A stretch of DNA of 35,857 bases, taken from UHGV virus genome UHGV-0063910. One strand, given 5' to 3'. This DNA comes from a virus. The translations under genes were made by a program, and so were the position numbers. The notes beneath the pieces are model-generated. The model saw only the letters and a program-made list of their open reading frames with translations. It did not search any database and had not been told where the DNA came from. Positions within the stretch are counted from its first letter, which is position 1; every line of letters begins with the position of its first letter. This document shows positions 745-25,037 of this stretch, piece after piece.

Positions 745-3320
745 CGTCCACCTCCGGAGAACAGACCACCATCGCGCATCTGTGCCTGGATTTCATCACG
801 GGCACCCTTGCGGGCCATGTCATACACCGCCTTCATCATCTGTGGACCTGGCAGACCATTCGTACCGTCGTTCTGAATCACCACGTTGTTGTTCTGCTCA
901 AACCTGATACCCTCTGAACGCCGCATTTGCGCCGGACTTCCGGTGCCACCGACATAACCGCCGGTGGCATAGCCGCGCATCAGCCGGTAGAGATTTCCCA
1001 CGCCAATCCGGCTGGTTGCCTCCTTCGTGAAGACAAATTCACCACGGTGAACAATCCCCGCTGGCTCATATTTGCCGCCGGTTCCCGTAAATCCTCCGGT
1101 TGCAAAATGGAGTTTCGCCGCAGCGGCCTGAATGGCTGTACCGCCTGACGCGGATGCGCCGCCACCAACAGCCCCGCCAATAGCGCTGCCGATACTCCCG
1201 ACAATCCCCACCATTGCCTGCTTAAGCAGAATTTCTGTCATCATGGACAGCACGGAACGGGTGAAGCTGCGCCAGTTCTGTTCACTGCCGGTCAGCATCG
1301 CCGCCATATTCTGCGCAATACCATCAAAGGTCTGCGTGGCAGCACTTTTAACCTGCGACATACTGTCCGTGGCACTCTCTTTCCACTCGCTCCAGCCGGA
1401 CCTGAGGCCTGCCATCCAGTTCCCGCGAAGCAGGTCTTCAGCCGCCCAGGTCTTTTTCTGCTCTGACATGACGTTATTCAGCGCCAGAGGATTATCGCCA
1501 TACTGTTCCTTCAGGCGCTGTTCCGTGGCTTCCCGTTCTGCCTGCCGGTCAGTCAGCCCCCGGCTTTTCGCATCAATGGCGGCCCGTTTTGCCCGTTGCT
1601 GCTGTGCGAATTTATCCGCCTGCTGCGCCAGCGCGTTCAGGTGCTCCTGATACGTAACCTTGTCGCCAAGTGCAGCCAGCTGGCGTTTGTACTCCAGCGT
1701 CTCATCTTTATGCGCCAGCAGGGATTTCTCCTGTGCAGACAGCTGGCGACGTTGTGCTGCCTCCTCCAGTACTGCGAACTGATTTTCTGCCTTCCACAAA
1801 TCCCGGCGCTGCTGGCTGATTTTCTCATTCGCTCCGGCATGCTTCTCCAGCGTCCGGAGTTCTGCCTGAAGCGTCAGAAGGGCAGCATGAGCACTGTCTT
1901 CCTGACGATCGCCCGCAGACACCTTCACGCCGGACTGTTTCGGCTTTTTCAGCGTCGCTTCATAATCCTTTTTCGCCGCCGCCATCAGCGTGTTGTAATC
2001 TGCCTGCAGGATTTTCCCGTCCTTCAGTGCCTTGTTCAGTTCTTCCTGACGGGCGGTATATTTCTCCAGCGGCGTCTGCAGGCGTTCGTAAGCCTTCTGC
2101 GCCTCTTCGGTATATTTCAGCCGTGATGCCTCAGAGTCGGCCCAGTCCTTTGCTGCCATCTCTCTGGCCTTTTCCAGATCGGCCTGCAACGTGGCAGCTG
2201 AAAGCCCAAGTTGCGCATTCGCTCTGTCCTCCCATGCTCCACGGAGATTGGCAAGAAATGCTGAGGTTTTACCGCGCCGGTGGCTCCGGCTCTGATACCA
2301 CTGCCATTTTTTGTCCGCCTCATCAAAAGCCTTTTCTGCTTTCTCCAGCATTTCCTGGGCTGTGTCCGGGCGACCAATATCCAGCACCGAATCCCACATG
2401 GATTTGAATGCCCGCGCAGTCCTGTCTGCCCAGGTCTCCAGCGTGCCCATGTTCTCTTTCAGGCGGCGGGTCTGGTCATCAAACCCTTTCGTTGCGGCCT
2501 CGTTCGCTGCCTGCAATGCCCCGGCCTCATCGCCGGAACGCTGCAACTGAGCAACATACGCAATTTGCTCCGCCGTCACGTTATGGAACTGGCGCGCCAT
2601 CGCCGTCAGCCCCGACGTCGGGTCAGTGGTCAGCTTCCCGAAGGCTTCAGCGACCTTGTCCACCTCCACGCCGGATGCAGAGGAGAAACGCGCCACACTC
2701 TGGCTGATGGACGCAATCTGAGCCTCACCGCTTACCCCCGCCTTAACCAGTGCACTGAGTGACTCGCTGGTCTGGTTAAACGTCAGCCCTGCCGCCTGCC
2801 CGGCTCTGGACAGGACCAGCATACGATCTGCCGTCAGACCCGACTGATTACCGGAAAGGACCAGCGTTTTGTTGAAATCGGACAGGGTTGAGTTACCCTG
2901 ATACCAGGCATACGCCAGCGCACCGGTCGCCACCGCCAGCGAGGTGGCCCCGACCATCGGCAGGGTGATCGCACCGGCAAGCCCCCGGAACATGGGGATC
3001 ATCCCGCCGAAGGAGTCCTTAACCTGACCACCCTGTTGCAGCAGGATCAGCCACGGACTTTGCCCGCCTGCAAGCTGCGTGGCCACGTCGGTGAACTGCG
3101 CAGGCAGCATACGCATGGCAGCTTTATACTGCCCGACGGAAATCCCCGCTTTCTGTGCAGCCAGCGCCTGCCGGTTCATCGACTGTTCAACGACTGCCGC
3201 TGTTTTTTTCGCATCAGTTTCCGTACCGGAAAAATGACGCCTGACTCTGGCCATCTGCTCGTCAAATCTGGCCGCATCCAGACTTAAATCAACGACCAGA
3301 TCGCCTACCGGTTCAGCCAT
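741..3320 (-). CDS. H: Tail tape measure protein H
   Basis: 859-aa ORF with long coiled-coil-like Ala/Gln/Glu/Lys-rich middle and Gly-rich C-terminus, directly after G/T. Lambda gpH is about 853 aa. Confidence 0.9.
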   Translation of the reverse strand: MAEPVGDLVVDLSLDAARFDEQMARVRRHFSGTETDAKKTAAVVEQSMNRQALAAQKAGISVGQYKAAMRMLPAQFTDVATQLAGGQSPWLILLQQGGQVKDSFGGMIPMFRGLAGAITLPMVGATSLAVATGALAYAWYQGNSTLSDFNKTLVLSGNQSGLTADRMLVLSRAGQAAGLTFNQTSESLSALVKAGVSGEAQIASISQSVARFSSASGVEVDKVAEAFGKLTTDPTSGLTAMARQFHNVTAEQIAYVAQLQRSGDEAGALQAANEAATKGFDDQTRRLKENMGTLETWADRTARAFKSMWDSVLDIGRPDTAQEMLEKAEKAFDEADKKWQWYQSRSHRRGKTSAFLANLRGAWEDRANAQLGLSAATLQADLEKAREMAAKDWADSEASRLKYTEEAQKAYERLQTPLEKYTARQEELNKALKDGKILQADYNTLMAAAKKDYEATLKKPKQSGVKVSAGDRQEDSAHAALLTLQAELRTLEKHAGANEKISQQRRDLWKAENQFAVLEEAAQRRQLSAQEKSLLAHKDETLEYKRQLAALGDKVTYQEHLNALAQQADKFAQQQRAKRAAIDAKSRGLTDRQAEREATEQRLKEQYGDNPLALNNVMSEQKKTWAAEDLLRGNWMAGLRSGWSEWKESATDSMSQVKSAATQTFDGIAQNMAAMLTGSEQNWRSFTRSVLSMMTEILLKQAMVGIVGSIGSAIGGAVGGGASASGGTAIQAAAAKLHFATGGFTGTGGKYEPAGIVHRGEFVFTKEATSRIGVGNLYRLMRGYATGGYVGGTGSPAQMRRSEGIRFEQNNNVVIQNDGTNGLPGPQMMKAVYDMARKGARDEIQAQMRDGGLFSGGGR

Positions 3321-3753
3321 ACCGGACTCCTCCTGCGATCCCTTCTGATACTGTCATCAGCATTACGTCATCCTCCGTCATGCCCGTCACATCCGGGGAA
3401 GCGGGGATAACTTCATTCCCGTCCGGGTCAAAGCGGACGCCTCCGGCAAGCCCTGCCGCTTTCTGCATCAGCACATCATATTCAGGCTCTTCGTCAGCCT
3501 CACGCCGGTTCAGCAGACTGAAATCCAGCGGATGCATATCCGGATCGCTGAAAAACAGGCTGAGTACGGTGTACGTCAGCCCGGAAAAGTGCATATCCAG
3601 CAGAACATCATGAAAATAGTGGGTACTGTAAAAGCGGTGCCAGTCGGCATACTCCGTGGATGACATCCCGGCAAGCATGGCGCGCCAGTCGGGTCGCCCC
3701 ATCTCACGCGCCAGTTTCAGGGCAAAACTCAGCTCACCGTCGAACACTTTCCC
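3313..3753 (-). CDS. T: Tail assembly chaperone T portion, expressed as G-T fusion by programmed -1 frameshift
   Basis: ORF in -1 frame relative to G, with no credible independent start. Slippery heptamer GGGAAAG lies at 3747..3753 (minus strand) at the end of G, as in lambda. Confidence 0.8.
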   Translation of the reverse strand, partial: GKVFDGELSFALKLAREMGRPDWRAMLAGMSSTEYADWHRFYSTHYFHDVLLDMHFSGLTYTVLSLFFSDPDMHPLDFSLLNRREADEEPEYDVLMQKAAGLAGGVRFDPDGNEVIPASPDVTGMTEDDVMLMTVSEGIAGGVRYG

Positions 3754-4151
3754 GCAGAAACAGGCTCTGCAGGCCCGGCGTCCTCTGCCTGTTCAGGGGC
3801 ATTATTCACCACAAACTCAGACATACCGGACAGCCGGTACACCACGTTTTCAGCATGAGAAATTGCCTCTGTGGGCCAGGTGGTAAGCACTTCCTGCTCA
3901 ATCTGTTTAACGGCCTCATTCATGGACGGCATCTGCGTCTTCTTCGGATGGTTATGCCACAGGGACATCGCCACCACAAAAGCGCCGGTTCTGATGACGT
4001 CTTCCACAGTAACCTGCCGGTTGCTGTCTGACTCCGCCTGTTCTGCCTGCCGTTTCATCAGGGCAAGATGCTCAATACGCTGCAGGGCTGACAGTTCAGA
4101 AAGCGTGACGGTCACGCCGTTATGTTCAAATGATTCGGTTTTCAGGAACAT
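3729..4151 (-). CDS. G: Tail assembly chaperone G
   Basis: 140-aa ORF MFLKTESFEHNGVTVTLSEL... matches lambda gpG; the last codons contain the G GGA AAG slippery site. Confidence 0.9.
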   Translation of the reverse strand: MFLKTESFEHNGVTVTLSELSALQRIEHLALMKRQAEQAESDSNRQVTVEDVIRTGAFVVAMSLWHNHPKKTQMPSMNEAVKQIEQEVLTTWPTEAISHAENVVYRLSGMSEFVVNNAPEQAEDAGPAEPVSAGKCSTVS

Positions 4152-6698: not shown

Positions 6699-7489
6699 TT
6701 ACGCCAGTTGTACAGACACGAACTCATCAGGGTCAGCCAGCAGCATCAGCGGTGCTGACTGAATCATGGTGAACTCACGCGCCGGGTCGCCGGTGGTCAC
6801 CCAGTTTTTCGGGTAACGGGCAGAGGCGTTAATGCCTTCGCGCTGTGCGTCCGCATCCTGAATGCAACCATAGGTGCGCAGACCGCGTGCCTGAGTGTTC
6901 CCCAGCACCATCGTGTTGTCCGGCAGGAAGTTCTTTTTGACGCCGTTTTCCACGTACTGTCCGGAATACACGACGATGGCCACATCGCCATACATTCCCT
7001 TATAAGACACCGCTTTGCCCAGGTCTTTTACCGCTGTCTCCAGCTCGGAATGAGAGCCGCGACGGGTATCCAGCTTCTCCTTGACGGCTTTGAAGGAACG
7101 GAACAGCGCCCAGCCTTTCGGATCAAACACGATGATATTCACCACACCGCTGGCGTTCAGCGCGTAGGCTTCGATATCGTCGGTCGGGTCATACGTGGAC
7201 TTGTCACGCTTGCTCCACTCCGTGCCGCCGGACTGCGTGATGTTATTCGCCTCACTGCGGCCCATATCCACCTCAACCGGATCGAAGGCTTCACCGGTCA
7301 TGGTATATTTGCCCTTAAGCACGGCAGAAACTGCCTGCATCTCTTCGACCTGGGCAATCGCCAGATTTTCATCCAGCATATTCTGCCGAATAATACGGCG
7401 ACGACGGTAAGCCGGGTCAGCCAGGTTCTGCGGATCTTCATCCGGCAGGCGACGCAGGGTCATCTGCGGATTCACCTCATGCTTGGGTT
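6699..7489 (-). pseudogene. E: Major capsid protein E, 3' portion (lambda E codons ~82-341), cut off from its 5' end by the island
   Basis: Translation PKHEVNPQMTLRRLPDEDPQNLADPAYRRRR...DPDEFVSVQLA matches the lambda gpE C-terminal ~260 aa. The reading frame is preceded by a TAA where the island begins. The N-terminal 82 codons are at 18606..18849. Confidence 0.9.
7480..7489. repeat. Left copy of 10-bp direct repeat TGCTTGGGTT flanking the island (putative attL core)
   Basis: Identical 10-mer at 18606..18615. Outer flanks on each side are the two halves of the E reading frame (cctca on the left, tgacata on the right). Confidence 0.8.
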
Positions 7490-7608
7490 ACATGAGTCAA
7501 ATATGAAAGGATGTGAATGATTTTTAGTGATAATATGCTTCAGAATTACTTCCAAAACGAACCGTTGCAATACATCATGCAATACACAGGATATGTAAGG
7601 AGTTATTA

Positions 7609-7794
7609 ATGACTAATTCAGTTGATGTTCAAACCCGTAGAGAAGAATTTGAGCAAGGATATCGAGATGGCTTTCGTTCGGTTCAGGGCAATGTTTTACC
7701 CCCAAAAGCTCCAAGAATTGTACTTGAAACGGGTTCAAAACCTTACGATCAAGGCCATGCTTACGGGGTCAGAGATGCTGGAGGCAAGCGGTAG
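7609..7794 (+). CDS. Small hypothetical protein (61 aa), first gene of the island cargo region
   Basis: ATG at 7609 with AAGGAG 8 nt upstream; AT-rich region; directly upstream of the Abi-like gene. Confidence 0.45.
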   Translation: MTNSVDVQTRREEFEQGYRDGFRSVQGNVLPPKAPRIVLETGSKPYDQGHAYGVRDAGGKR

Positions 7795-7838
7795 CTATCA
7801 CTGGTATAGTCCATAGAAAAAGTGTAAGGGGTCCTAAA

Positions 7839-8600
7839 ATGGATAATTTTCTCAATGAGTTTTCGTCGGATCAGGAACGAGCTAGACATTTAGAGAACTT
7901 ATTAATTAAGGTTGCTCGAGGAGGACCTCGAGATAATAGTGAAAATTATATTTCTCTTAGATCGTACTTTATACAAAACTCTGTATTAAAACTGTTGCTT
8001 CCTGCATTCGTAAGAGAAAACAGAAGCCTAAAAAAATTTTGGGGATTCATACAGCAGAAGTTCCCAACATATAAAGAGCGCGAGTACTTCATCTCAACTG
8101 AATTCACACCGTTATTCGATTATTTCGAAGAGAATCATGCTACGCCTTCGGATGTTCACATAACTGACGGATTAAGAAGCTATGATGAGTGTGGCGTGAA
8201 TGAAGCTTGGGCAAAAGCTCTAGACAGAAGAAACAACGATCCTGAAGGGGCTATTACAGCATCTAGAACATTGCTTGAGACGGTTTGTAAACACATTCTT
8301 GATGATTTAAGTATTACTTATGATAGAAATCTAGACATGAGTGAACTTTATAAACTAACATCCAAAGCACTTAATTTGGCTCCAGATCAGCACGGAGAAC
8401 AGATTTTTAAGCAGATACTTAAAGGTTGCTCATCTGTGGTAAATGGCCTTGGCAATTTACGTAATAAATATGGCGATGCTCATGGCATAGGGAAAAAACC
8501 AATAAAACCTGCTGATCGACATGCTCTTTTAGCTGTTAATCTTGCAGGAAGCATGTCAGTTTTCCTCATTCAAACATGGCAAAACTTGTCAAACAAATAA
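7839..8600 (+). CDS. Abortive-infection-like protein with C-terminal HEPN-type motif (candidate anti-phage cargo)
   Basis: 253-aa ORF with AAGGGG RBS; motif LRNKYGDAHG fits the Rx4-6H HEPN signature. AT-rich composition by eye, at the island edge. Confidence 0.5.
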   Translation: MDNFLNEFSSDQERARHLENLLIKVARGGPRDNSENYISLRSYFIQNSVLKLLLPAFVRENRSLKKFWGFIQQKFPTYKEREYFISTEFTPLFDYFEENHATPSDVHITDGLRSYDECGVNEAWAKALDRRNNDPEGAITASRTLLETVCKHILDDLSITYDRNLDMSELYKLTSKALNLAPDQHGEQIFKQILKGCSSVVNGLGNLRNKYGDAHGIGKKPIKPADRHALLAVNLAGSMSVFLIQTWQNLSNK

Positions 8601-9308
8601 TACCTAATTTTTAACCTCAACTGATTAAATTTCGGTCAAACATCCGTTAGTGAAATACAAGTTGCTATGTAAATACACACCTGCAACTTGTATTACCAAC
8701 CAAGTTTAGCTCCCGATATTACTCATTTCCATTATTTTTCCTTGGCTAGCGCTTCGTCGAACATTTTTACGTGTTATCTTCAAGGTAGATGCTCGCAGAA
8801 ATGATAGTACCACCGATTCGGCGTTGACCATAAGCCAGCAGAACAAGATCCCCTTGGCCGGTTGTATTCGTTACACCACCAAATGCATAGAATGCCTTGT
8901 TATCAGTATCTTGCTTACTCGGCTACCCACAAGATTGTGGGGATAGCATTTGAGCAACGTAGCCTATCGTCACAGAAGCCCCTACTACAAACATCATATT
9001 ACTGGACGCTATACGCGCTCCTGACATTCAGATAGACACAGCAACGCAAATCATTTGCAGCAGACCAGAGCTTTTACTTTCCACAATAACTGGCACAAAT
9101 ACGAATTTCCCGACCCTCAGTAGAGAGCACAAGCGCATCTTTTCCAATATTCTGTTTCCTATGAAAAATACAGAATGTCAGCTCGCGAAATTTACTAGTA
9201 TTCAGATACTTTTCTAATCGAACCTCTCAGTTTAATCGTCATCATTACCTTATAGCTCTGCATTTCGAGTTCCTACAGTAGAGTAAGTGTTCAGTAACCC
9301 AAGTTCAG

Positions 9309-9517
9309 GAGAAAGGAAACGATCATGCCATTTTCAGTCCCAAATAATGCTTTCCATTTCCTTTCTTTTCAGGTGGTGTTTTAAATAAAAACATAAAGTT
9401 ACGGCGAAGAAGAACGGAAACGCCTTAAACCGGAAAATTTCCATAAATAGAGAAAAACTGCGCGCCTTCCGCCCCGTAGTCTGCCGGATTGCCGGAAAGG
9501 ACCCGCCAGCCAGAGCG
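9309..9517. other. Island cos-like site, homologous to the prophage cos
   Basis: About 210 bp alignable with 24828..25037. The ggttacggcgaagaagaacggaaacgccttaaaccggaaaatt block is near-identical. The cosN-like segment (about 9463..9474) differs at several positions and the R1-like hairpin has diverged. Confidence 0.75.
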
Positions 9518-9530
9518 GGCCCTAATTTCA

Positions 9531-9875
9531 TCAACCAATCAACTTATTGCGCCCTTTCAGGGCATTACGCCTGGCGCGTTCAATCTTGAGGCATAACGCC
9601 GCATCAGGTTTTTCCGGTGTGGGTACGAGGCAATAGTTTGATGCTCGCGGGATATTGTTAATCCACTCAACAACCTCGCTTAAATACCAAGCCTTACGCC
9701 CTTCCGTAACCTGCACACGCTCAGGGAACTCTCCACGAGCCTCAAGGTTTAGCAGTGTACGGCGACTCAGGGTTGTAAGTTCCATCACCTGATTCATATC
9801 GACAAGACGCTCGCTTAAGCGCATTTTGTCATCGATATCTAATAGCTCTCGTAGCTGACTATCTCTTTCAATCAT
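9531..9875 (-). CDS. AlpA/MerR-type HTH protein next to the cos-like site (regulator or packaging-specificity factor)
   Basis: 114 aa; segment ELTTLSRRTLLNLEARGEFPERVQV...WYLSEVVEWINN fits the AlpA-family HTH pattern. GAGG RBS; last gene of the E-like/D-like operon. Confidence 0.5.
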   Translation of the reverse strand: MIERDSQLRELLDIDDKMRLSERLVDMNQVMELTTLSRRTLLNLEARGEFPERVQVTEGRKAWYLSEVVEWINNIPRASNYCLVPTPEKPDAALCLKIERARRNALKGRNKLIG

Positions 9876-9884
9876 TCTCGTACC

Positions 9885-10226
9885 TCACACACGTGCCAGC
9901 GGCTGAACAGAAATACCTGAGCCAACAAACGCAGCAACTTTTGCTGATAGTTGTGTTACAGACTCAGGCCAGTTCAGAGCATCAACATTTAAGACGCCGG
10001 TTTTATAAACCTGAGCCTGCGTTTTTGTCGCTGTATCGATTTGTACAGCGGAAACATAAACAGCTTTGCCTGCGCTCGTTCCATCCCATACCACCAGTGC
10101 ACCAGTTGCATCTTCTTGCATCAGTGGCGTAAATGCAGGAATTACCCCTTTATTAGCTGAAAATATCCCCAACGTAGTAACCAGTGCTTCAGTGCCAGCC
10201 ATGAGTTCAGTGTAATGAGTAGCCAT
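9885..10226 (-). CDS. Head decoration protein, lambda gpD-like (island-encoded)
   Basis: 113 aa; aligns with lambda D over TPLM...LVVWDGT..GKAV...YKTG....LNWPE.....AFVGSGIS. AAGGGGGAG RBS; immediately downstream of the E-like gene. Confidence 0.75.
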   Translation of the reverse strand: MATHYTELMAGTEALVTTLGIFSANKGVIPAFTPLMQEDATGALVVWDGTSAGKAVYVSAVQIDTATKTQAQVYKTGVLNVDALNWPESVTQLSAKVAAFVGSGISVQPLARV

Positions 10227-10235
10227 TGCTCCCCC

Positions 10236-11276
10236 TTAACCAATGCGAACGGTAACAAAACGATTGATGCGGGCCGGTATTGGCTGTGGTGCAGAGTGCG
10301 TTTGTACGTACTCAATAGCCGGATCTCCAGGCACAATGTAGTTTTTCGGTGCGAGTTCGGCTTTAGTCAGCCCCATTCGGATTAGCTCCGGATCCTGAAT
10401 GCCACCGTATGCAACGATGCCCTGAAGTGATGTATTGCCAAGAACCATCAAATCAGGATCAAGGAAATATTTTTCTGTTCCGTCCTCGTCGGTATAACGT
10501 CCGCTATACACAACAATAGCCACATCGCCTACGTAACCCTTAAAACTGACGGAATCCCCAAGATTTTTCAGGGCCGTTTCAAGAACGGAATTAGATCCCC
10601 GTCGAGTATCAAGGCAATCTTTTACTGCTTTAAAGGCGCGGTATTTTTTCCATACGTTGCGTCCCATTACGATGATATTTGTAGTCCCTTCGCTGATTTC
10701 TGCGTACTCTTCGATGTCATCATTTGGATCAAATGTTGATAAATCTCTACCGCTCCACTCCGTGCCGCCGGACTGCGTGATAATATTTTGTGGTTTTATA
10801 TTCCAGTCCAGTTCATAACGTTCAATGCCATCGCCCTCAATGATATTTTTCCCCGTTGTGATTGCCTGAACAGCAAGCCATTCAATACGTGCGCGAATGG
10901 CCTGCGCTTGTCTTACCATCGCTCGCTTTATTTTGAAATTGCGTGATGAATATGCATTGAATTGTTCCGGTGATACGCCTGGTTGACGAACGGCTATTTT
11001 ATTTGGGTCTATACTACTTTTTGGCTTCATGTAGCCAGGGCGAATTACTTTTGATTCGTAGCCTTCATCGCGTGATACTTTACTACCAACCATAGGGGAA
11101 CAAAATGCAGCCATCGGGATGTCTGGATCGTCAATAATATCAAGCGCAATATCCCGCGTCTCAAATGTAACGACTCGCTTAAAAAACAGGTTTATAAATA
11201 AAGAGTTAATCTGCCATTGAATATCTTCGGCATTAACAGTCTGTATTAACTCCGCTGGCGAATATAAACCACTCAT
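10236..11276 (-). CDS. Major capsid protein, lambda gpE-like, full length (island-encoded second copy)
   Basis: 346 aa. Conserved blocks ITQSGGTEWS, DTRRGS, GDVAIVVYSG, YG.IQD shared with lambda E and the split prophage E. Divergent from the prophage copy (roughly half of positions differ by eye). Confidence 0.85.
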   Translation of the reverse strand: MSGLYSPAELIQTVNAEDIQWQINSLFINLFFKRVVTFETRDIALDIIDDPDIPMAAFCSPMVGSKVSRDEGYESKVIRPGYMKPKSSIDPNKIAVRQPGVSPEQFNAYSSRNFKIKRAMVRQAQAIRARIEWLAVQAITTGKNIIEGDGIERYELDWNIKPQNIITQSGGTEWSGRDLSTFDPNDDIEEYAEISEGTTNIIVMGRNVWKKYRAFKAVKDCLDTRRGSNSVLETALKNLGDSVSFKGYVGDVAIVVYSGRYTDEDGTEKYFLDPDLMVLGNTSLQGIVAYGGIQDPELIRMGLTKAELAPKNYIVPGDPAIEYVQTHSAPQPIPARINRFVTVRIG

Positions 11277-11461
11277 ATAACCTCTTAATACTTAGTAAAA
11301 GTGTCGTATTAATTTTATCATCTGCCTTGATCGGCATCTTTATGCATTGCTATGCAATATTGTGCAAAGTTTCAATCTTCGTTTATTTATCCGGCGTTAC
11401 GTGTCATTCTGTACAGCGTTACAAGTTCAAAGACATAAATTATTCTCTTTGGTGATGAAAG

Positions 11462-11487
11462 GGTCGGAATATTCCGGCCTTTTTTTT
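11462..11487 (+). terminator. Intrinsic terminator on the plus strand (hairpin + T8)
   Basis: ggtcggaatattccggcc palindrome followed by tttttttt. No plus-strand ORF upstream, so it may end an unannotated small or antisense RNA. Confidence 0.5.
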
Positions 11488-11510
11488 GCGTGGTGTGACG
11501 GACTCAACTG

Positions 11511-11532
11511 ATAAAAGCCGGATTTCTCCGGC
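11511..11532 (-). terminator. Intrinsic terminator for the island replication operon (minus strand)
   Basis: On the minus strand gccggagaaatccggc followed by ttttat, immediately after the ssb-like stop. Confidence 0.5.
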
Positions 11533-11540
11533 CTGTGCGT

Positions 11541-11947
11541 TCAGAATGGAATATTGTCACCGTAGAGATCATCCCCTCCCGCTGGTGGTGTGTTGCCCTG
11601 TGTGCCTGTGGTTTTACGTCTGTTCCCGCCAGGTCGCACCGTTCGCGCACTGATTACGCTGTCTGCGATAACCTGCCAGCGCTGCCGCGTTTCACCGTTC
11701 TGTCCAGTCCACTGGCTCACCTGCATGTTACCCGCCACGCTCAGGAGTTCGCCTTTGTGATGCTTTGCCAGCGTGTCGGCTTGTCTGCCAAACGCCAGGA
11801 CAGATAACCACATCGTCGCCTGACCGTCATCCGACTGCAGGGCAGTGATACCGCCATACGCGCCAGCGTCATGGGGATGCCCTTGCTGGTCTGTTTTGTC
11901 TGCGGGTCGTCCACCAACCTCCCGTAAACTGATATTTGCGCCGTCAT
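11541..11947 (-). pseudogene. ssb: ssb-like gene split over two reading frames (frameshift near 11838..11850)
   Basis: The 11947 frame gives an SSB-like N-terminus (ISVYGRLVDDPQTKQ...). A different frame gives the OB-fold C-half (WLSVLAFG...KGELLSV...WTGQNGETR) and an acidic tail ending DNIPF. Confidence 0.55.
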
Positions 11948-12201
11948 GCTGCCTGCTCTCCGGACTTAATATTGATGGTTGTCACTTCCTCCGCTTCAGC
12001 AATCTCCCGTTCGGTCAGAGTGGCAAAGTTTGCAGCCGCCGTTGTCATGAATGCGCTAATCAGTTCGGGATGTGCTTTCGCGTATCCTTCACCGGCGTTG
12101 CGATCTATTGCCTTAATCGCCACCCTTAGCCAGTGTTCAGCCATATCAAGGGCGCGGTAATGTGGCTTTATATGTTTGTTCAGTTTTCCTGATGTGTGCA
12201 T
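11944..12201 (-). CDS. Hypothetical protein (85 aa), between the ori and the ssb-like gene
   Basis: ORF whose stop overlaps the ssb-like start; weak RBS. Confidence 0.4.
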   Translation of the reverse strand: MHTSGKLNKHIKPHYRALDMAEHWLRVAIKAIDRNAGEGYAKAHPELISAFMTTAAANFATLTEREIAEAEEVTTINIKSGEQAA

Positions 12202-12246
12202 TTTTATTTTTACCCCCTCGTTTAAAAAGTTTTGAAATGTGGTGCA

Positions 12247-12475
12247 CCTCCTCTACCTCTCTACCTAATCATCTTTCAGGTCAGTAATGGCGCGGCTTTC
12301 AGATGGGTAGAGGGCTTTCGGGGCCCTCTACCCATCCTCTACCCGCCCCTCACAAATGACCTTAATCATGGTGGAGGAGGTAGAGGGCTTTTATTTGCCT
12401 TCTACCTGACCCTCTACCTGCTTATCATATTGAATAATATATATTTATTTTCTTTAGGTAGAGGAGGTAGAGGGC
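12247..12475. repeat. Iteron array (about 9 copies of GGTAGAGG/CCTCTACC, both orientations) flanking an AT-rich stretch: putative island origin of replication
   Basis: Iterons at about 12251-12265, 12306-12313, 12325-12344, 12379-12386, 12399-12420, 12457-12473; AT-rich core 12421-12456; immediately 3' of the primase-helicase gene. Confidence 0.75.
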
Positions 12476-12487
12476 TTTTGTCTAAAA

Positions 12488-14239
12488 TTATAAAAACGCG
12501 TCGCAATCCTCTGTTGTTGTCACATTGGTTTGCGTAAGTCCTTTAACCCTGCGCGTTATATATTCACATCCGTAAACTTTCGCCGCTGGCTTCATGGCCT
12601 TGCTGAAATCAGCCACGTTTAGCGGCTTGCTTCTGCCTGCGTATGCCATAAACGCCAGATAGACGCGGTAAAGGCTGTTTCTGGTCGTGTACTTCACGGA
12701 ATCGCCACCGCCACCCATCATCAGGCCGCGCGCTTCCTCCAGAAAATTCAGAAACTGGCAAAACTCAATAACCGGATCCGTCTGTTGCTTTATCGCCAGT
12801 GCTTCTTCACCGTCGCGCTGTTCAATCAACAAATGTCGCGCCTTTTCTGGATCAGCAAAGTTTGCCAGCAATCTGCGGATAATCACGGGGATTTCAGCCG
12901 CGACCTTCTCCGGTAAATCCTTGTCCTTTTCTGCCTCGCTAACGATATTGTCGAAGCGGAAAATTACGCGACGACGTGACACACCTCCGGCCCGTTCGGT
13001 GAATATCATCGGGTTATTGTTGGTAGCCAGCACCACCGCCCTGATTACCTCCGTAAAACGCTTTTCATATTTCGGGTTTATTTCCACGGGGTCGCCGCCC
13101 GTGATTTTCTTGATGCCCGTGCCTTCGCCTGTATATTTCGGCTGGTCAGCCAGGACGATAAGACGTCTCCCGACAACCTGAGCACGCCCACCAGCATCAT
13201 CAAGCGAAGTCATTTCAGCGCTTACCGTGTTCTGTTTCCCTGCCAGAAGGCTGGCTATGTGCGTGAATGTACTCTTTCCGCTCCCGCCGTCTCCGGTGGC
13301 CTCAATAAACATCTGCCAGTCGTACCGGTTCGCCATAATCATGTACAGCGCGGCACATATACGCATCATCTTGCGCGGGTCTTTTCCGGCTGCGTGATCA
13401 AGCCATTTATGAAAGTTTGGCGCGTTGTCGCGGATGTTCTCCCCTGGTGCTGGTGGCGTGTACTCAATGCCGTTGTGCGTGGTGATCCAGTTCTCCGGCG
13501 AGTGCGGGGAAAATTCCCCCGTTTTCAGGTCAAGCACACCATTGGCGAACGGTAGCAAATCACCGGACGGCTCCCCCATGGGGTCGGCAATAACTTTTAA
13601 CGCCTCCACGGCGTTATTAATTGCACGCTTGCTGAATGTGGCCCTGTGCTCTGAATAGATCGCCACCATTTCGCGGCTCAGCTCCATTGTGCTGACCGGA
13701 CACCATACCCCGCCGCGCCATACGTGGACGATTTCACTTTCTGCATGAACACACACACCATCAAAGCGATCGGCAAGTAGTTGTGCACGTTCACTGTCTG
13801 CCATCTGTGAAAGTTGCGCCTTTTGCTTCGTCGGAAGATTAAGCACCAGACTTTCCCCACGCTCGCATTCCTCTTTGAGTCGCGGCAACTGGTCGGATAA
13901 ATCCACGGGGCTGGTGTCAGTAATCCCCGCGTATTCGTGTACGGTCTTCACTCCAGCCACAGCCAATAACGTAACAATCTGCGTCATGCTGTGCTCTGTG
14001 ATATGTCCTGCGCGGTAAACACGCACACACTGACGATCTTCATCAATGATCCGGTAATCGGTGATATTTTTCAGTTGCTCATCAGCCAGCACGACAGGCG
14101 GCACATCGTCGGCGGCAATATGTTTACCCGCCCATTCCTGCCACTCTTTCGCATGGCTCCACGCATCACTACCTGCAAAGATGATTACCTCTGTCAGTCT
14201 GTCGCGTGGCTGTTTTTTTAAGTTCGGTGCCAGTTTCAT
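12488..14239 (-). CDS. Primase-helicase (D5/P4-alpha-like, SF3 helicase with Walker A)
   Basis: 583 aa; Walker A motif GDGGSGKST in the C-terminal half; location between regulatory genes and ori typical of satellite replication modules. Confidence 0.8.
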   Translation of the reverse strand: MKLAPNLKKQPRDRLTEVIIFAGSDAWSHAKEWQEWAGKHIAADDVPPVVLADEQLKNITDYRIIDEDRQCVRVYRAGHITEHSMTQIVTLLAVAGVKTVHEYAGITDTSPVDLSDQLPRLKEECERGESLVLNLPTKQKAQLSQMADSERAQLLADRFDGVCVHAESEIVHVWRGGVWCPVSTMELSREMVAIYSEHRATFSKRAINNAVEALKVIADPMGEPSGDLLPFANGVLDLKTGEFSPHSPENWITTHNGIEYTPPAPGENIRDNAPNFHKWLDHAAGKDPRKMMRICAALYMIMANRYDWQMFIEATGDGGSGKSTFTHIASLLAGKQNTVSAEMTSLDDAGGRAQVVGRRLIVLADQPKYTGEGTGIKKITGGDPVEINPKYEKRFTEVIRAVVLATNNNPMIFTERAGGVSRRRVIFRFDNIVSEAEKDKDLPEKVAAEIPVIIRRLLANFADPEKARHLLIEQRDGEEALAIKQQTDPVIEFCQFLNFLEEARGLMMGGGGDSVKYTTRNSLYRVYLAFMAYAGRSKPLNVADFSKAMKPAAKVYGCEYITRRVKGLTQTNVTTTEDCDAFL

Positions 14240-14535
14240 TTTTTGCCCCTGAATGCGTTAATCATGCTTTTCATTTTCTGGATGTTTCCCCGCGCTTTTT
14301 CCCTGCTGATGGGGTTACTGCGGGGTGCGGCATATACCAGGGAAAAATCACGCCGGAACTGATAAACAGGCATCACGCAGTCATAGCTATACCCCTCACG
14401 GCGGTAAGTGATGCGCCGTTCTGCCACGCCTTTAATCGTTACCGTGCCGCCGTATTTATCGCGGTAAATATCGCCGTTCATAAATTCAGGCCGAGCGGGG
14501 CCGCTGGCAATAAAGCCAGAATTTTTCATTTCCAT
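14236..14535 (-). CDS. Hypothetical protein (99 aa), translationally coupled to primase
   Basis: Stop overlaps the primase ATG (ATGA). Confidence 0.5.
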   Translation of the reverse strand: MEMKNSGFIASGPARPEFMNGDIYRDKYGGTVTIKGVAERRITYRREGYSYDCVMPVYQFRRDFSLVYAAPRSNPISREKARGNIQKMKSMINAFRGKK

Positions 14536-14552
14536 ATTATTTATTCCTCGAC

Positions 14553-14774
14553 TTAACTCGACTTATTTGATAGCAGGGCACTATTTATTGCGTCATTGAG
14601 TTTTTCTGCTGCTTCATCAATAAGTGACAACAGGCCATAAGCAATATTTGCATCTTCATTGTCATTTATGCAATCAAGCCACATATTTAATATTGCTTTT
14701 GCTGAATTATTTAAAGTTAATGAACTTTCTGCACATGCTAACAATTTAAAAAAGACTTCCCGTTCTGTATTCAT
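14553..14774 (-). CDS. Hypothetical small protein (73 aa)
   Basis: ORF in the tightly packed minus-strand operon; AT-rich codons. Confidence 0.4.
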   Translation of the reverse strand: MNTEREVFFKLLACAESSLTLNNSAKAILNMWLDCINDNEDANIAYGLLSLIDEAAEKLNDAINSALLSNKSS

Positions 14775-14966
14775 TTAATCCCCCACCAGCTTACTTTCTT
14801 CCTCAATCAAAAAACTAGCGACACTTCCCGAAAGACGCGCCAGTAGGCTCGCCAGTGCGGATATATCAGCATCTGTAATTTTGTTCGGGTATACCTCAAG
14901 AAGGCGGCAAATAATTTCTGTCTGGTGCGCACGTTCAGCGGCTTCGTGTAATGTAATTTCCTGCAT
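14775..14966 (-). CDS. Hypothetical small protein (63 aa)
   Basis: Abuts neighbouring ORFs in the same operon. Confidence 0.4.
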   Translation of the reverse strand: MQEITLHEAAERAHQTEIICRLLEVYPNKITDADISALASLLARLSGSVASFLIEEESKLVGD

Positions 14967-15151
14967 TAATGCACCTCTTTTAATTCATACACTGCTGAAA
15001 TAATGACTTGTGATAAGCCATATTCTGATGATTCGCTTCTCACCGCAGCAATAGCCGTCTGAACATTAACAGCCTTCACGTTCTGAGCGATACCAATTGT
15101 GTGGCCTAGTGGGTTAACCGCACGAGCAAATACACGGAAGGTTTTAAGCAC
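14966..15151 (-). CDS. Hypothetical small protein (61 aa)
   Basis: Abuts neighbouring ORFs in the same operon. Confidence 0.4.
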   Translation of the reverse strand: MLKTFRVFARAVNPLGHTIGIAQNVKAVNVQTAIAAVRSESSEYGLSQVIISAVYELKEVH

Positions 15152-15508
15152 GGCATACCTCCTGACGAATACGGGCGGCGAATATCATCACGCAGCCAGT
15201 TGGGGATTGTTGGCGGGCTTCCTGTTCGCTGGTGGCCTCGATGTGTATTACGCGTGGTTGTGCGGTGCTCAGGGCGATAAAACGCCAGATGAAATTGTTT
15301 TCGCATTTCTGAATAAACAGCGTGTTTTCTTCACGCCCTTTCCAGAAAGCCGCAGTATAGCCCATCTCCTTAACCATCTTGCGGGCATCAACCAGCGTGT
15401 CAGCGGCAACATGTACCGTAGTTGCTCCATCTGCCATGCGGTCGTGGTGTAGTGCCAGAAAGGTGTATATAAATTTAGGGTGAGTTTGGGTATGCTGTGT
15501 TCCAGCCA
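15144..15508 (-). CDS. Hypothetical protein (121 aa), first gene of the island early operon
   Basis: ATG at 15506-15508 with GAGG RBS. The track ORF upstream of this ATG (to 16058) is antisense to the regulator gene and Ser/Arg-rich, so treated as spurious. Confidence 0.5.
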
Positions 15509-15595
15509 TAATCGTTACCTCGTTTAACGGTTTGGTTAGAAGCCCGGTTAGTGTTCGCGCACTGCCGGGTTTCGTCGTTTTTATGAATCGATCAT

Positions 15596-15699
15596 TGTGA
15601 GATACATAGCGACCATAATGTGAGATATACATTATATTGTGGTGATATACATTGCAAGTGTTTTTATATCTCACTTTTGTGTATAGTGATATACACATA
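15596..15699. promoter_or_regulatory. Divergent control region with 5 copies of a GTGA(G/T)ATA(T)ACA(T) operator-like repeat
   Basis: Copies at about 15596-15608, 15619-15632, 15640-15651, 15665-15674 (inverted), 15687-15699, between the minus-strand operon start and the plus-strand regulator. Confidence 0.55.
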
Positions 15700-15717
15700 A
15701 CAAATTGGTGATTAACT

Positions 15718-16020
15718 ATGTCTGTATACAAAAATGCAAAATCGCAAATGACAACGATCAGGGTTCCCCACGATGTTATGGAGGGCATGGAATCCGTAAA
15801 ACTGGACGGCGAAAGCAACGCCGGATTCATAGTAACCGCCATGCGCGGTGAGATCGCCCGCCGCCAGGCAGAAGGAAGCGGAGAAAATCCCCTCGTGTCT
15901 TCACTGGATGCCTTAGCTAAGGTCGAACAAATCGGCATCAAGGCAGCGGAGGAAATCGGGCAACTCGTAGCCGTCGCTCGTGAAGAACTCCAGCGGCGTA
16001 AAGCCAAAGAATCTGAATAA
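15718..16020 (+). CDS. Putative ribbon-helix-helix-like DNA-binding regulator (candidate island repressor)
   Basis: 100 aa; N-terminus QMTTIRVPHDVMEGMESVKLDGESNAGFIVTAMRGEIARRQ fits a strand-helix-helix layout; immediately downstream of the operator repeats. Confidence 0.4.
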   Translation: MSVYKNAKSQMTTIRVPHDVMEGMESVKLDGESNAGFIVTAMRGEIARRQAEGSGENPLVSSLDALAKVEQIGIKAAEEIGQLVAVAREELQRRKAKESE

Positions 16021-16370
16021 TTAGTATCAGCGCCGTGATGTGAGTAACTACGGCGCATTGCTATGTAAATACTGGCAATAAACAGAAAAGGTAGTTCTAC
16101 TCCGAATAATTTTATCTGACACTACTCCTGAACTAACATGCGCTTATCTTACAGGATATAAATATAAATCCATAAAATCACGATTAAATAAAGTCGCTCC
16201 AAACATAAACCACACCCAACGCTTAACAAGATAGCAACAAACAGGTAAATAACTTGCAGAAATATTTATCGCAAGGATTATCATTATTAATGACAAATCA
16301 CTTTACCAAGTCATTCCCCTCTCTTATCATAAAGAGAAAGTAATAAATAAGTTAAGGGAGTTAGAATGCT

Positions 16371-16907
16371 ATGAATCTAAAAAAAATAGCCACAAACACA
16401 AAAAACAAGATAACAGAAACATTTAATAAACTTATATTGGAGGCATCTAAAACCCCCACGCAAGATGAAATTAAAATACTTGAGAGAAGGAGTAAGAAGT
16501 TTAATTACTCCTTTTTCTCATACGCAGTCACAGGAGCTATAATAGTTTTTTGCTCTCAACCATTAATTAAATACGCAAACCCAATACTTATTTTATTGAG
16601 TGGTCTGTTACTGTCTATCATCATTATCATTCTCAGAATGATTTATATTTCACAAGCGAATGCATCATGGACAACCAAAAAACGCTCACATGTACTAGTT
16701 CATTTTCTTTCTGCATGTTTCATAGCATCAACATTGACGTTGCTATATCAGGCTTACGATAATAACATCACACACAAATTGTACTGTAAAAATATACAAC
16801 AACTTATTGAAAAAAGGATAGAAATAGAAAAAAACATCAGCATATTCAGTGGGATGCAATGCACCCCGGTATATGATTACTCTTTATTTGGATTTAATCT
16901 CTTATAA
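16371..16907 (+). CDS. Small membrane protein (about 3 TM helices), AT-rich cargo
   Basis: 178 aa; hydrophobic stretches FFSYAVTGAIIVFCSQPLI, ILILLSGLLLSIIIIILRMIYI, VLVHFLSACFIASTLTLLY; Lys/Asn/Ile-rich; preceded by GGGAG. Confidence 0.5.
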   Translation: MNLKKIATNTKNKITETFNKLILEASKTPTQDEIKILERRSKKFNYSFFSYAVTGAIIVFCSQPLIKYANPILILLSGLLLSIIIIILRMIYISQANASWTTKKRSHVLVHFLSACFIASTLTLLYQAYDNNITHKLYCKNIQQLIEKRIEIEKNISIFSGMQCTPVYDYSLFGFNLL

Positions 16908-16927
16908 AGAATGTTATTACTGATTTG

Positions 16928-16961
16928 AGTACAAATTCTCAAATCAGTAATTCATAATATT
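16928..16961. terminator. Bidirectional terminator hairpin (13-bp stem) between the membrane-protein gene and alpA
   Basis: ttactgatttgag ... ctcaaatcagtaa inverted repeat with an 8-nt loop and T-rich flanks on both sides. Confidence 0.55.
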
Positions 16962-16976
16962 TTATTCTGAGATAAT

Positions 16977-17213
16977 TTAAACTACCCACTCACCTCGAAT
17001 CCATGCCTGCACTTCTGAAAGACGATATGCAACAGCAGTGGAACCAATCTTGATCCGCTTAGGAAATTTTCCTTCCTTCTCCAGCTTCCAGCGTGTGCTG
17101 TTCGCAAGAGTGGTTAGCTCCCGACATTCTTTCTCACGGATCATTCGGTCAATGTTAGGAATGTACTCCAGACCCTTTTTATCAACAATTGCCATTTTTT
17201 TCATGTTAACCAA
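16977..17213 (-). CDS. alpA: AlpA-family HTH regulator / excisionase-like protein
   Basis: 78 aa; ELTTLANSTRWKLEKEGKFPKRIKIGSTAVAYRLSEVQAWI matches the AlpA pattern; directly downstream of int, overlapping it by 8 nt. Confidence 0.7.
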   Translation of the reverse strand: MVNMKKMAIVDKKGLEYIPNIDRMIREKECRELTTLANSTRWKLEKEGKFPKRIKIGSTAVAYRLSEVQAWIRGEWVV

Positions 17214-18441
17214 CCTTTTGTTTGAGGATTGTCACTTTTGAATCAGCACCTGCGATGCTATTGAGATATGTAGTCCAGAGTTCCAGAGCATCCAGTTTTT
17301 TAGCCATAAACTTACTCCGGTTGTAAACACCTGCCACGCCAGGTAGCGCATGGCCTAACAGTTGTTCTACTACATAAAATTCAACACCGAGATCACTTAG
17401 ATGAGTAGATAGCGTTCTTCTAAGGTCGTGTAGTGACCATTGTTTTTCATGGCCCAAACGTTTACCGATTTTCCCCCCAATCTTGCTTACGCTTTCTCTA
17501 ATTCGCAGACTTCCCAGCACATAACCAGTATGTTTTGTCTCTTCGTGAACATCCGTTACCCACTGTCGTAGAATTTCAGGTACTGGTCTGACGATTTCAA
17601 CACCAGTTTTTGAGTGATCTTTTGGTACAGTCCAAACCCAACTTTCGAGATCCCATTCGCTCCATTCTGATAATCGGGCTTCACTCATTCGACATCCAAA
17701 TACTGTACAAAGCACAAACATTTTTCGCGTGTATTCAGACATTAGTTTTAAATCAGGCTCGACAAAAATTGCCTTCCAGAGCTGGCCGAGTTCGGCTTCA
17801 TCCAGAACCCGATCCCGCTTACCTGCAATCTGCCCCACATCACTCATGCGCAAATCCTTTAAAGCATCACACGTCGCGTACTGGCGTACCCGACAAAAAC
17901 GAAGAGCTAATTTAGTGTCAGAAAAAACATACGCCGCCATAACTGGTGCATTACGTTTAATTCGGTCAAAACAGTCCAGCCATTCATATAGGTGAGTGTC
18001 ATTTACGGGCAAATGACCGATATAGGGAAAGATATGCTTTCGAAATCTGCCAAGCGTTACAGCATGAGTTTTACGACGCACCTTACAGTAATTTTCATAC
18101 CAGTAATTTAGTGCATCCTCCACTGTGACCGGCTTTAAGCGTTCTTCAGCCTGAATCTTAATCTGGATACGCGGATCACGTTTGTCAGCCAACCAACCAC
18201 GGCACTCGTCGCGCTTTTCCCTTGCCTGTTTGAGTGACATATCAGGATATTTACCCAACGTTAGCCAGACCGGAGCAGCCCGGCCACCTGCTAACCTGTA
18301 GAAGAAAACAAAGCTTACAGCCCCTTTAGTACTCACACGAATAGAAAGCCCCTTTCCATCAGCAATGGTGATCTGCTTTTCTCTGGGTTTCCCCAGATAT
18401 CCTTTAAGCGCTTTGTCGCTCAGTTTGTTCTCGCCAGCCAT
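17206..18441 (-). CDS. int: Tyrosine integrase (P4-type)
   Basis: C-terminal catalytic region with HDLRRT...LGH...Y residues; sits next to the right repeat. Start placed at ATG 18439-18441 (MAGENKLSDK...); the track ORF extends to 18492. Confidence 0.85.
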   Translation of the reverse strand: MAGENKLSDKALKGYLGKPREKQITIADGKGLSIRVSTKGAVSFVFFYRLAGGRAAPVWLTLGKYPDMSLKQAREKRDECRGWLADKRDPRIQIKIQAEERLKPVTVEDALNYWYENYCKVRRKTHAVTLGRFRKHIFPYIGHLPVNDTHLYEWLDCFDRIKRNAPVMAAYVFSDTKLALRFCRVRQYATCDALKDLRMSDVGQIAGKRDRVLDEAELGQLWKAIFVEPDLKLMSEYTRKMFVLCTVFGCRMSEARLSEWSEWDLESWVWTVPKDHSKTGVEIVRPVPEILRQWVTDVHEETKHTGYVLGSLRIRESVSKIGGKIGKRLGHEKQWSLHDLRRTLSTHLSDLGVEFYVVEQLLGHALPGVAGVYNRSKFMAKKLDALELWTTYLNSIAGADSKVTILKQKVG

Positions 18442-18605
18442 TTTTAGCCCCAAAAAGCAATACAAGCTGCAATACAGAGATGATTGCAACACACAGATAA
18501 CGAGGAAAATTCAGTGAAAGCACCAGATAAACTTATTCTTTATTATCAAAAGATTAAGTGTAAAAACCAGCAACTACACGAAAGCCTCAGAAAGCCATGC
18601 TAAGT

Positions 18606-18615
18606 GCTTGGGTTT
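18606..18615. repeat. Right copy of 10-bp direct repeat TGCTTGGGTT (putative attR core)
   Basis: Identical to 7480..7489; lies inside the codons KPKH of the E 5' fragment. Confidence 0.8.
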
Positions 18616-18849
18616 GACATAACCCGGCGTAAATTCAGAGGTGGAGCCGCCACGGGATCGGATAACCTCACCGGAAACAATCGGCGAAACGTACAGCGCC
18701 ATGTTTACCAGTCCCGGAATTTGTGAGAGATAGACTTTTTCCGTGGTGAAAGGATAGGTTTCACGGAAAAACAGGCGCAGAAACAGCGGATCGAACTTAA
18801 AGTGATGCTGGGTCGATGCCAGTAATTCTGCAGTTGTATATACAGACAT
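18606..18849 (-). pseudogene. E: Major capsid protein E, 5' portion (codons 1-~82), reads into island DNA
   Basis: MSVYTTAELLASTQHHFKFDPLFLRLFFRETYPFTTEKVYLSQIPGLVNMALYVSPIVSGEVIRSRGGSTSEFTPGYVKPKH matches the lambda gpE N-terminus, then continues as LAWLSEAFV-stop in island sequence (track ORF ends at 18574). Confidence 0.9.
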
Positions 18850-24827: not shown

Positions 24828-25037
24828 AGAGAAAGGAAACGACAGAGGCTAAAAAGCCCGTTTTCAGCACCTGTCGTTTCCTTTCTTTTCAGGGGGTGTT
24901 TTAAATAAAAACATTAGGTTACGGCGAAGAAGAACGGAAACGCCTTAAACCGGAAAATTTTCATAAATAGCGAAAACCCGCGAGGTCGCCGCCCCGTAAC
25001 GGTCTGGATCACCGGAAAGGACCCGCCAACGACTTTC
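24828..25037. other. Prophage cos site (cosB R elements, cosN with 12-nt cohesive end AGGTCGCCGCCC at 24983..24994, cosQ side)
   Basis: Reverse complement contains GGGCGGCGACCTCGCGGGTTTTCGCTATTTATGAAAATTTTCCGGTTTAAGGCGTTTCCGTTCTTCTTCGCCGTAAC, matching the lambda left end/cos as recalled. Confidence 0.9.

Follow-up and report, generated by a model that had tools for sequence, protein, structure and literature searches.

What is a pair of plus-strand genes doing at the AT-rich edge of a mobile island? The question arises in a window of 35,857 nucleotides, the whole stretch of viral DNA analyzed here (UHGV virus genome UHGV-0063910), in which an earlier note had marked two ORFs just inside the left repeat of an island as candidate anti-phage defense cargo, the larger one Abi/HEPN-like and the smaller one perhaps its partner or antitoxin. 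We consider it probable that the larger gene encodes a stand-alone HEPN RNase of the AbiJ family, carried as exchangeable abortive-infection cargo that would protect the satellite, its helper and the host. The 61-aa gene beside it would be a small gene in its own right, which merely shares the cassette with it.

The left repeat is real, as its 10-bp core, TGCTTGGGTT, recurs in a second copy at the other end of the island (Table 1). Just inside it, the GC content drops from 0.558 at positions 7001-7500 to 0.380, 0.390, 0.402 and 0.416 in the next four 500-nt intervals, bearing out the AT-rich composition described for this edge over the following 2 kb. The left core falls in the KPKH codons of an interrupted lambda-E-like capsid gene, and the two capsid fragments are in frame when joined across the 10 bp (...GYVKPKH/EVNPQMTL...). 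The element between the cores (7480-18614) is 11.1 kb long and is inserted in a lambda-E-like major capsid gene. It carries an integrase, two AlpA-family genes, an Icd-like gene, DUF4222 and a P4-type primase, together with its own E and D homologs and a lambda-like cos site. Integration in a prophage late gene at a short att block, with the gene restored on excision as the in-frame fragments indicate, is what characterizes helper-embedded PICIs (HE-PICIs), as is a gene set of integrase, AlpA, primase, own capsid homolog and cos site. [quoted passage not shown] It shares with the published 11capE (Mageeney et al., 2023; PMC10111431) the integration site in the lambda-E homolog, the 10-bp att block, the integrase, AlpA and primase genes, the satellite's own E and D homologs and the cos site, whose published location agrees with the one found here. 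Annotations of other E. coli genomes show an insertion arranged in the same way. The 11capE paper does not discuss defense cargo, and the Abi cassette is described here; that accessory defense genes sit at a satellite's end is an established theme of PICI and P4 defense hotspots, which this island shares.

Table 1. Features of the island and of its capsid-gene insertion site (positions in the window; strand given as + or -, or as a point for the att cores).
Feature	Position	Strand	Basis or remark
Capsid gene 3' fragment (lambda-E-like)	6699-7475	-	Adjoins left att core
Left att core, TGCTTGGGTT	7480-7489	.	Identical 10-mer at 18605-18614; matches 11capE identity block (PMC10111431)
61-aa basic hydrophilic protein, pI 9.3	7609-7794	+	ORF, RBS, purifying selection
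253-aa AbiJ-family (Pfam Abi_C) HEPN protein	7839-8600	+	Abi_C and PADLOC AbiJ profile matches
Predicted catalytic motif R208-N-K-Y-G-D-A-H215 (Rx6H, or R-polar-x5-H)	8460-8483	+	Conservation; resemblance to SadR motif
Perfect 12-bp inverted repeat, 54 nt past the Abi stop codon	8654-8694	+	Fold energy -17.1 kcal/mol, z -3.4
Decayed, frameshifted, N-terminally truncated Lambda_tail_I-family remnant	8773-9214	-	tblastn
Satellite's own cos site, lambda-like; bounds the variable slot on its inner side	9357-9506	-	Aligns with helper cos region
AlpA-family HTH gene, satellite late zone, conserved slot flank	9531-9875	-	phrog_2790, E 4e-39
Satellite integrase	17206-18492	-	Adjoins right att core
Capsid gene 5' fragment	18574-18849	-	Adjoins right att core
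Right att core	18605-18614	.	Identical to left 10-mer

Both ORFs lie exactly where they had been placed, and each is preceded by a ribosome-binding site that is plain to see in the sequence: AAGGAG stands 6 nt ahead of the ATG of the 61-aa gene and AAGGGG 7 nt ahead of that of the 253-aa gene. The profile search that had been suggested for the larger protein returned two family matches. Pfam Abi_C (PF14355) matches residues 169-244 with 83 bits, where the gathering score is 24 (E 1.7e-23), spanning profile positions 2-82 of 83, and the PADLOC AbiJ profile matches residues 129-245 (E 2.4e-22). Every one of 46 aligned homologs likewise matches Abi_C, RefSeq names the exact sequence 'abortive infection family protein', and the protein matches a full-length PHROG to which no function is assigned. 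The family is populous, with 4416 homologs among 90% clusters, full length at about 250 aa, and 3442 as representatives of 50% clusters. Judged by its sequence, the gene is clearly a member of the AbiJ/Abi_C family.

Within the Abi_C match lies the string LRNKYGDAHG (residues 207-216), which had been taken for the Rx4-6H signature of HEPN RNases in the protein's C-terminal region. Its R208 (nt 8460-8462) and H215 (nt 8481-8483) frame an Rx6H motif, R208-N209-KYGDA-H215, of the R-polar-x3-5-H form that marks the Abi_C/AbiJ family. R208, N209, D213 and H215 are invariant among the 46 homologs (53-83% identity) and at least 90% conserved among 54 representatives at 37-55% identity. Because the motif residues are conserved in near and distant homologs alike, the Rx6H string is not a product of chance, which the 83-bit match around it also rules out.

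A single-sequence structure prediction of the protein was set aside (pLDDT 46). The AlphaFold model built with an alignment (pLDDT 82.9, pTM 0.51) displays the helical bundle of the HEPN fold at approximately residues 117-253, and together with the profile matches and the conserved motif this upholds the Abi/HEPN-like identity. No solved structure was found among the protein's sequence relatives. Residues 1-100 are confidently modeled as a separate, all-helical N-terminal domain, in which R41, F44, P55, R62, F67, W68, Y78 and R81 are invariant among the 46 homologs. Neither the query nor any of these homologs has a Pfam match in this domain at E ≤1, AbiJ_NTD1-5 included, and the PADLOC AbiJ profile aligns only at its positions 160-275 of 281. 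The C-terminal 150 amino acids, the HEPN half, are 55-57% identical to proteins that bear AbiJ_NTD3. We thus regard the protein as an AbiJ/Abi_C member whose sequence carries an unnamed N-terminal domain that typifies a large subfamily. Since this half lacks homology to the N-terminus of lactococcal AbiJ and to AbiJ_NTD1-5, the trigger of the protein may differ from theirs.

The known relatives show what such an architecture can do. The AbiJ family has been described as a conserved HEPN effector joined to swappable N-terminal domains, proposed to be sensors or built-in inhibitors (Anantharaman et al., 2013; PMC3710099). Our protein shares with the AbiJ-NTD1 to NTD5 architectures a variable, putatively sensing N-terminus ahead of the conserved effector, and differs from them in that its N-terminal 100 residues match no Pfam NTD family. 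The closeness of its HEPN half to that of AbiJ_NTD3-bearing proteins is an instance of the domain exchange by which the family is defined. Lactococcal AbiJ (Abi-859), the prototype of Abi_C and of the PADLOC AbiJ profile, has the same C-terminal HEPN domain and likewise acts in abortive infection as a single gene borne by a mobile element, but its N-terminal 160 residues have no counterpart in the 253-aa protein. Phage mutants that escape lactococcal AbiJ map to a single-strand-annealing protein (SSAP), its mechanism being otherwise unresolved (PMC13064643).

The closest parallel in the literature is SadR of S. aureus, a single-gene Abi_C protein of 266 aa (Kondo et al., 2026; PMC13590631). 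Its motif, RNEYGDAH, is nearly identical to the RNKYGDAH found here. [quoted passage not shown] It lowers the plating of several phages 10- to 10,000-fold and also lowers plasmid transformation; mutation of R, N or H in the motif abolishes RNase activity and defense together, and an escape phage carries a change in its SSAP (PMC13590631). Like the 253-aa protein, SadR is the product of one gene with a C-terminal Abi_C domain, carried beside or within mobile elements, a likeness drawn from its published description. By contrast, SadR belongs to a host of another phylum and adjoins rlmH/SCCmec, not a phage satellite. By analogy with SadR and lactococcal AbiJ, the 253-aa protein may have RNase and anti-phage activity. 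A third relative, Taranis, is an anti-phage single-gene Abi_C cassette of the Vibrio cholerae chromosomal integron, and its description also notes Abi_C systems in Klebsiella PICIs (bioRxiv 10.1101/2024.07.02.601686). Compared by description, Taranis is similar in being a single-gene system with an Abi_C domain, often near integrases, and different in its N-terminus, which is reported to be distantly AbiJ_NTD5-like, and in its residence in an integron cassette.

The N-terminal domain invites a bolder reading, which we think unlikely: it could be a new sensor module, and the AbiJ subfamily that it marks, a very large one, would then be distinct and respond to a trigger of its own. In this satellite, embedded in its helper, the sensor might be set to spare the helper, or else to fire upon helper induction, and the satellite would control which lambdoid phage replicates in the cell. 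On the same supposition, the 61-aa protein, which is conserved by itself in another mobile element, might be not filler but a small independent modulator, for example an anti-defense or regulatory peptide.

We now turn to the surroundings of the cassette. The satellite genes and the helper's late operon all lie on the minus strand, and both cargo genes lie on the plus strand, converging on the satellite's cos site. Because the Abi gene is oriented against the satellite genes and against helper late transcription, it needs a promoter of its own. A promoter scan found no consensus sigma-70 promoter upstream of the cassette, and expression of the candidate RNase in the lysogen is an assumption on our part. 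By eye, we infer an extended -10-like element, TGATAATAT, at approximately 7528-7536. Downstream, the inverted repeat that follows the Abi stop codon is possibly a hairpin at the transcript's end; it has no U-tract, and a terminator scan identified no canonical intrinsic terminator.

The 930-nt gap beyond the Abi gene (8601-9530), considered as a possible regulatory or RNA locus, resolves into a tail_I pseudogene and the satellite's cos site. With a 198-aa Lambda_tail_I-like protein of a K. oxytoca PICI as tblastn query, the pseudogene aligns at 55% identity over residues 85-197 in frame -2 and at 40% identity over residues 46-93 in frame -1. The cosB of the satellite is near-identical to that of the helper prophage, and cosN differs, reading GGGCGGAAGGCG in the satellite and GGGCGGCGACCT in the helper (24983-24994). 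This cos segment occurs in 4699 of 5426 E. coli genomes.

From the cos site to the att site distal to the integrase, the satellite forms a slot of variable content; beyond its inner boundary stands an AlpA-family gene (Table 1) whose equivalents in sister loci match Pfam Phage_AlpA. Among the seven loci that we sampled, sister satellites carry in the slot a pair of GmrSD_N and RiboL-PSP-HEPN genes that PADLOC recognizes as NsnA / PD-T4-2, another sister element has a DUF3892 gene with hypothetical proteins, and yet another has a 311-aa protein without assigned function; in a chromosomal PICI and a portal-embedded relative, the slot contains terS. Varied content between conserved flanks, a recognized defense system among it, is the signature of a satellite defense hotspot. 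The view of the Abi gene as candidate defense cargo at the island's edge is thereby strengthened. The carriers of the Abi cassette share it at 99.6% identity, while their capsid module is only 85% identical to that of the window; the window's integrase end, in turn, is 99.1% identical to elements with other cargo. This mosaic pattern of identity indicates that the Abi cassette has been swapped among satellites. The cassette itself is found in only 4 of 5426 complete E. coli genomes, so any benefit that it confers is not widespread. The exact 253-aa protein is nonetheless present on many assemblies, identical and intact on hundreds of contigs.

Is the Abi gene, then, a weapon in the dealings between satellite and helper, curbing the helper's reproduction upon induction, or an addiction module by which cells that lose the satellite or the prophage are killed, and not a defense against outside phages? 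Its position lends itself to such an idea: it belongs to a satellite that is embedded in the capsid gene of its own helper, and this helper is a lambdoid phage, a group that commonly carries recombinases of the kind mutated in the phages that escape SadR and AbiJ. Satellites are, moreover, known to interfere with their helpers (PMC10111431). Against it stands the distribution of the family. Abi_C homologs do occupy the integrase-distal edge of PICI-like islands that are integrated at fis in Klebsiella and Pantoea, and the one in Klebsiella adjoins an intact tail_I-like gene; but members are also found outside satellites, in Serratia beside type I restriction-modification genes and a P2-like prophage, and in Lonsdalea alone, adjoining fis. 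In all, we saw Abi_C homologs on their own in five unrelated contexts. Moreover, unrelated cargo takes the place of the Abi gene in sister satellites, from which it follows that the gene is not part of the satellite's life cycle, and no antitoxin is present to make addiction work. We consider a role in satellite-helper conflict or addiction distinctly unlikely.

The small gene has to be weighed next, since it had been put forward as a possible partner or antitoxin. The 61-aa ORF is a real gene by the record of its sequence. It falls into only three clusters among 5.8 billion proteins. Its one diverged homolog has equal length and 69% identity. Similarity between the two loci is confined to the stretch from the ribosome-binding site through the stop codon, and 33 of the 58 differences affect the third base of a codon, with a dN/dS of 0.147; together, the confined homology and the low dN/dS rule out a spurious ORF. 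It is probably co-transcribed with the 253-aa gene, which follows 44 nt downstream on the same strand with no terminator in between.

This arrangement, and the joint travel of the two genes in E. coli, E. albertii and Citrobacter braakii, would suit a two-component toxin-antitoxin or Abi system in which the 61-aa protein neutralizes or regulates the HEPN RNase, all the more because many HEPN toxins are paired with antitoxins (PMC3710099; PMC13064643). However, all joint occurrences trace back to one cassette, whose near-identical copies (98-100% identity) count as a single event. Where the sequences diverge, the two genes part. Abi_C homologs at 54-80% identity have no relative of the 61-aa protein upstream in the contexts that we examined (Lonsdalea, Serratia, Klebsiella, Pantoea and metagenomic contigs), and the sole diverged homolog of the small protein, which belongs to a plasmid-like contig (ParA, RHH, DpnII/MboI), has no Abi_C gene in its vicinity. 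A 48-aa hydrophobic ORF precedes the Serratia-type Abi_C copies and is unrelated to the 61-aa protein. The adjacent partner conserved across diverged homologs that characterizes two-gene HEPN toxin-antitoxin systems is thus missing here, and since each gene occurs without the other, the proposal of a partner or antitoxin is left unsupported. The profile check suggested for the small protein gave it no help either: it matches nothing in Pfam, PHROG, NCBIfam or PADLOC and contains no MNT or other antitoxin domain. Finally, SadR and lactococcal AbiJ both function as single genes. We therefore judge the two-component reading very unlikely.

Could the 253-aa gene be a decaying or inactive passenger with no current function? 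Its neighbor is a pseudogene, truncated Abi copies exist in some E. coli records and the cassette is rare; but intact, identical copies of the ORF are present on hundreds of contigs, the protein keeps all residues that are invariant in its family, and the gene has a good ribosome-binding site, which together make mere decay highly improbable. One may also think of a type III toxin-antitoxin system of the AbiV or AbiF kind, whose antitoxin would be an RNA encoded ahead of the HEPN gene. AbiV, an HEPN Abi protein inhibited by such an RNA, is a precedent (PMC13064643), but the idea is barely credible here: no tandem or direct repeats were found upstream of or around the Abi gene, a scan showed no terminator-like site, a search for an RNA antitoxin or structured RNA in the cassette gave no Rfam match, and the upstream space is a protein-coding gene under purifying selection.

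For the stand-alone AbiJ-family RNase that we favor, a course of action can be sketched from S. aureus SadR and lactococcal AbiJ. The 253-aa protein would be made in the lysogen, as we assume by this analogy, and would dimerize so that the active site is formed by two Rx6H motifs together. Its N-terminal half, the conserved helical domain, might hold it inactive; this autoinhibition is speculative, because the model (pTM 0.51) leaves the orientation of the domains uncertain. A competing phage, on infecting the cell, would then switch the RNase on; the SadR and AbiJ escape mutants map to phage SSAPs. Once activated, it would cut single-stranded RNA non-specifically, bring translation to a stop and abort the infection, an outcome that would shield the host, the helper prophage and the satellite together.

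Much of this picture is already in print: the protein family, the satellite type and satellite-borne defense are published, and RefSeq names the gene correctly. Three points are new: the Abi cassette is placed in the HE-PICI slot, the small ORF is rejected as its partner, and the N-terminal domain that marks a very large subfamily, one of thousands of sequence clusters, is recognized as an unnamed one. The alternation of the Abi cassette with PD-T4-2-like cargo at the slot is likewise described here, on the basis of only a few loci. Sound as it is, the finding is an ordinary one and leaves current understanding unchanged. It adds a further documented case of satellites ferrying defense genes, in the unusual class of helper-embedded PICIs. 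At the slot that runs from cos to the distal att site, entire defense cassettes appear to be exchanged between otherwise diverged satellites, and this makes the slot a convenient place to mine for new systems; because the subfamily is very large, work in E. coli on the 253-aa protein would inform many genomes.

An 11.1-kb element (window 7480-18614) with the 10-bp att core TGCTTGGGTT interrupts the major capsid gene, a lambda-E-like gene, of the lambdoid prophage around it. This element is a helper-embedded PICI of the 11capE type, an element type that is already known (PMC10111431). In addition to E and D homologues of its own, the satellite possesses a lambda-like cos site separate from that of the helper. 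The cosB-like part is nearly identical between satellite and helper prophage, and the 12-nt cosN is unlike, reading GGGCGGAAGGCG in the satellite versus GGGCGGCGACCT in the helper. Of 5426 E. coli genomes, 4699 contain the 150-nt satellite cos segment at 87-93% identity; it also occurs on plasmids of about 46 kb. The satellite SSB gene, which sits in a patch of low GC (0.386 in 11001-11500), is apparently shortened, with a product of 90 aa in the window and at locus L028, versus 149 aa in the carrier strains VCSW7 and RM14723.

Features of the satellite, its helper and the sister satellites
Feature	Locus	Coordinates	Strand
Perfect 12-bp inverted repeat, 17-nt loop, 54 nt past the Abi stop codon	window	8654-8694	
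Lambda_tail_I-family gene remnant, frameshifted and N-terminally truncated	window	8773-9214	minus
Satellite lambda-like cos site	window	9357-9506	minus
Satellite D homologue	window	9885-10226	minus
Satellite E homologue	window	10236-11276	minus
Satellite SSB gene	window	11541-11813	minus
178-aa protein, no family match, in second variable region	window	16371-16907	plus
Helper cosN	window	24983-24994	minus
GmrSD_N (DUF262) and RiboL-PSP-HEPN proteins, same cargo slot as the Abi gene	L018, sister 11capE satellite	6956-8672	
GmrSD_N (DUF262) and RiboL-PSP-HEPN proteins, same cargo slot as the Abi gene	L025, sister 11capE satellite	2280-3996	

The inverted repeat that follows the Abi gene folds at -17.1 kcal/mol (z -3.4), lacks a U-tract, and may mark the end of the Abi transcript. 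Between the Abi gene and cos lies the tail_I remnant, an intact homologue of which (L009 7117-7713) adjoins the Abi_C gene in a fis-integrated PICI of Klebsiella oxytoca. Strain RM14723 and E. albertii (L002 16192-16800) have a second tail_I-like gene, which is intact.

Close Abi_C homologues in Lonsdalea, Klebsiella oxytoca and Pantoea (L003, L009 and L022; gene at 6001 or 8001) have dusB-fis directly upstream. In Klebsiella oxytoca and Pantoea the homologue belongs to a fis-integrated PICI-like island and sits at its integrase-distal edge, and the Lonsdalea gene stands alone by fis, possibly as a remnant left behind at the att site. At two further loci, both from the rpoD-mug region of Serratia-type genomes, a conserved hydrophobic 48-aa ORF (L007 5638-5784 and L020 1538-1684) precedes the Abi_C homologue by roughly 220-245 nt. 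Unrelated to the 61-aa ORF upstream of the Abi gene, this ORF may encode a small membrane peptide or represent a type I toxin-like gene. The sole diverged homologue of the 61-aa protein (L013 1031-1216) is encoded on a plasmid-like metagenomic contig with ParA, RHH and DpnII/MboI-like genes, where its neighbours are the gene for a membrane protein of 85 aa on one side and, on the other, a convergent gene for a 336-aa protein with no family match.

In the sister satellites, PADLOC scored the GmrSD_N and RiboL-PSP-HEPN pair as NsnA (E 6e-59) and PD-T4-2 A/B. A second variable region of the satellite (about 15300-17000 in the window) adjoins integrase and AlpA and is the equivalent of what the HE-PICI paper (PMC10111431) calls the 'dynamic/Bro zone'. 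Its counterparts in sister elements hold either DUF2971 together with a SWIM protein or HicB with a 241-aa unknown, and further accessory or defence genes may reside in this region.
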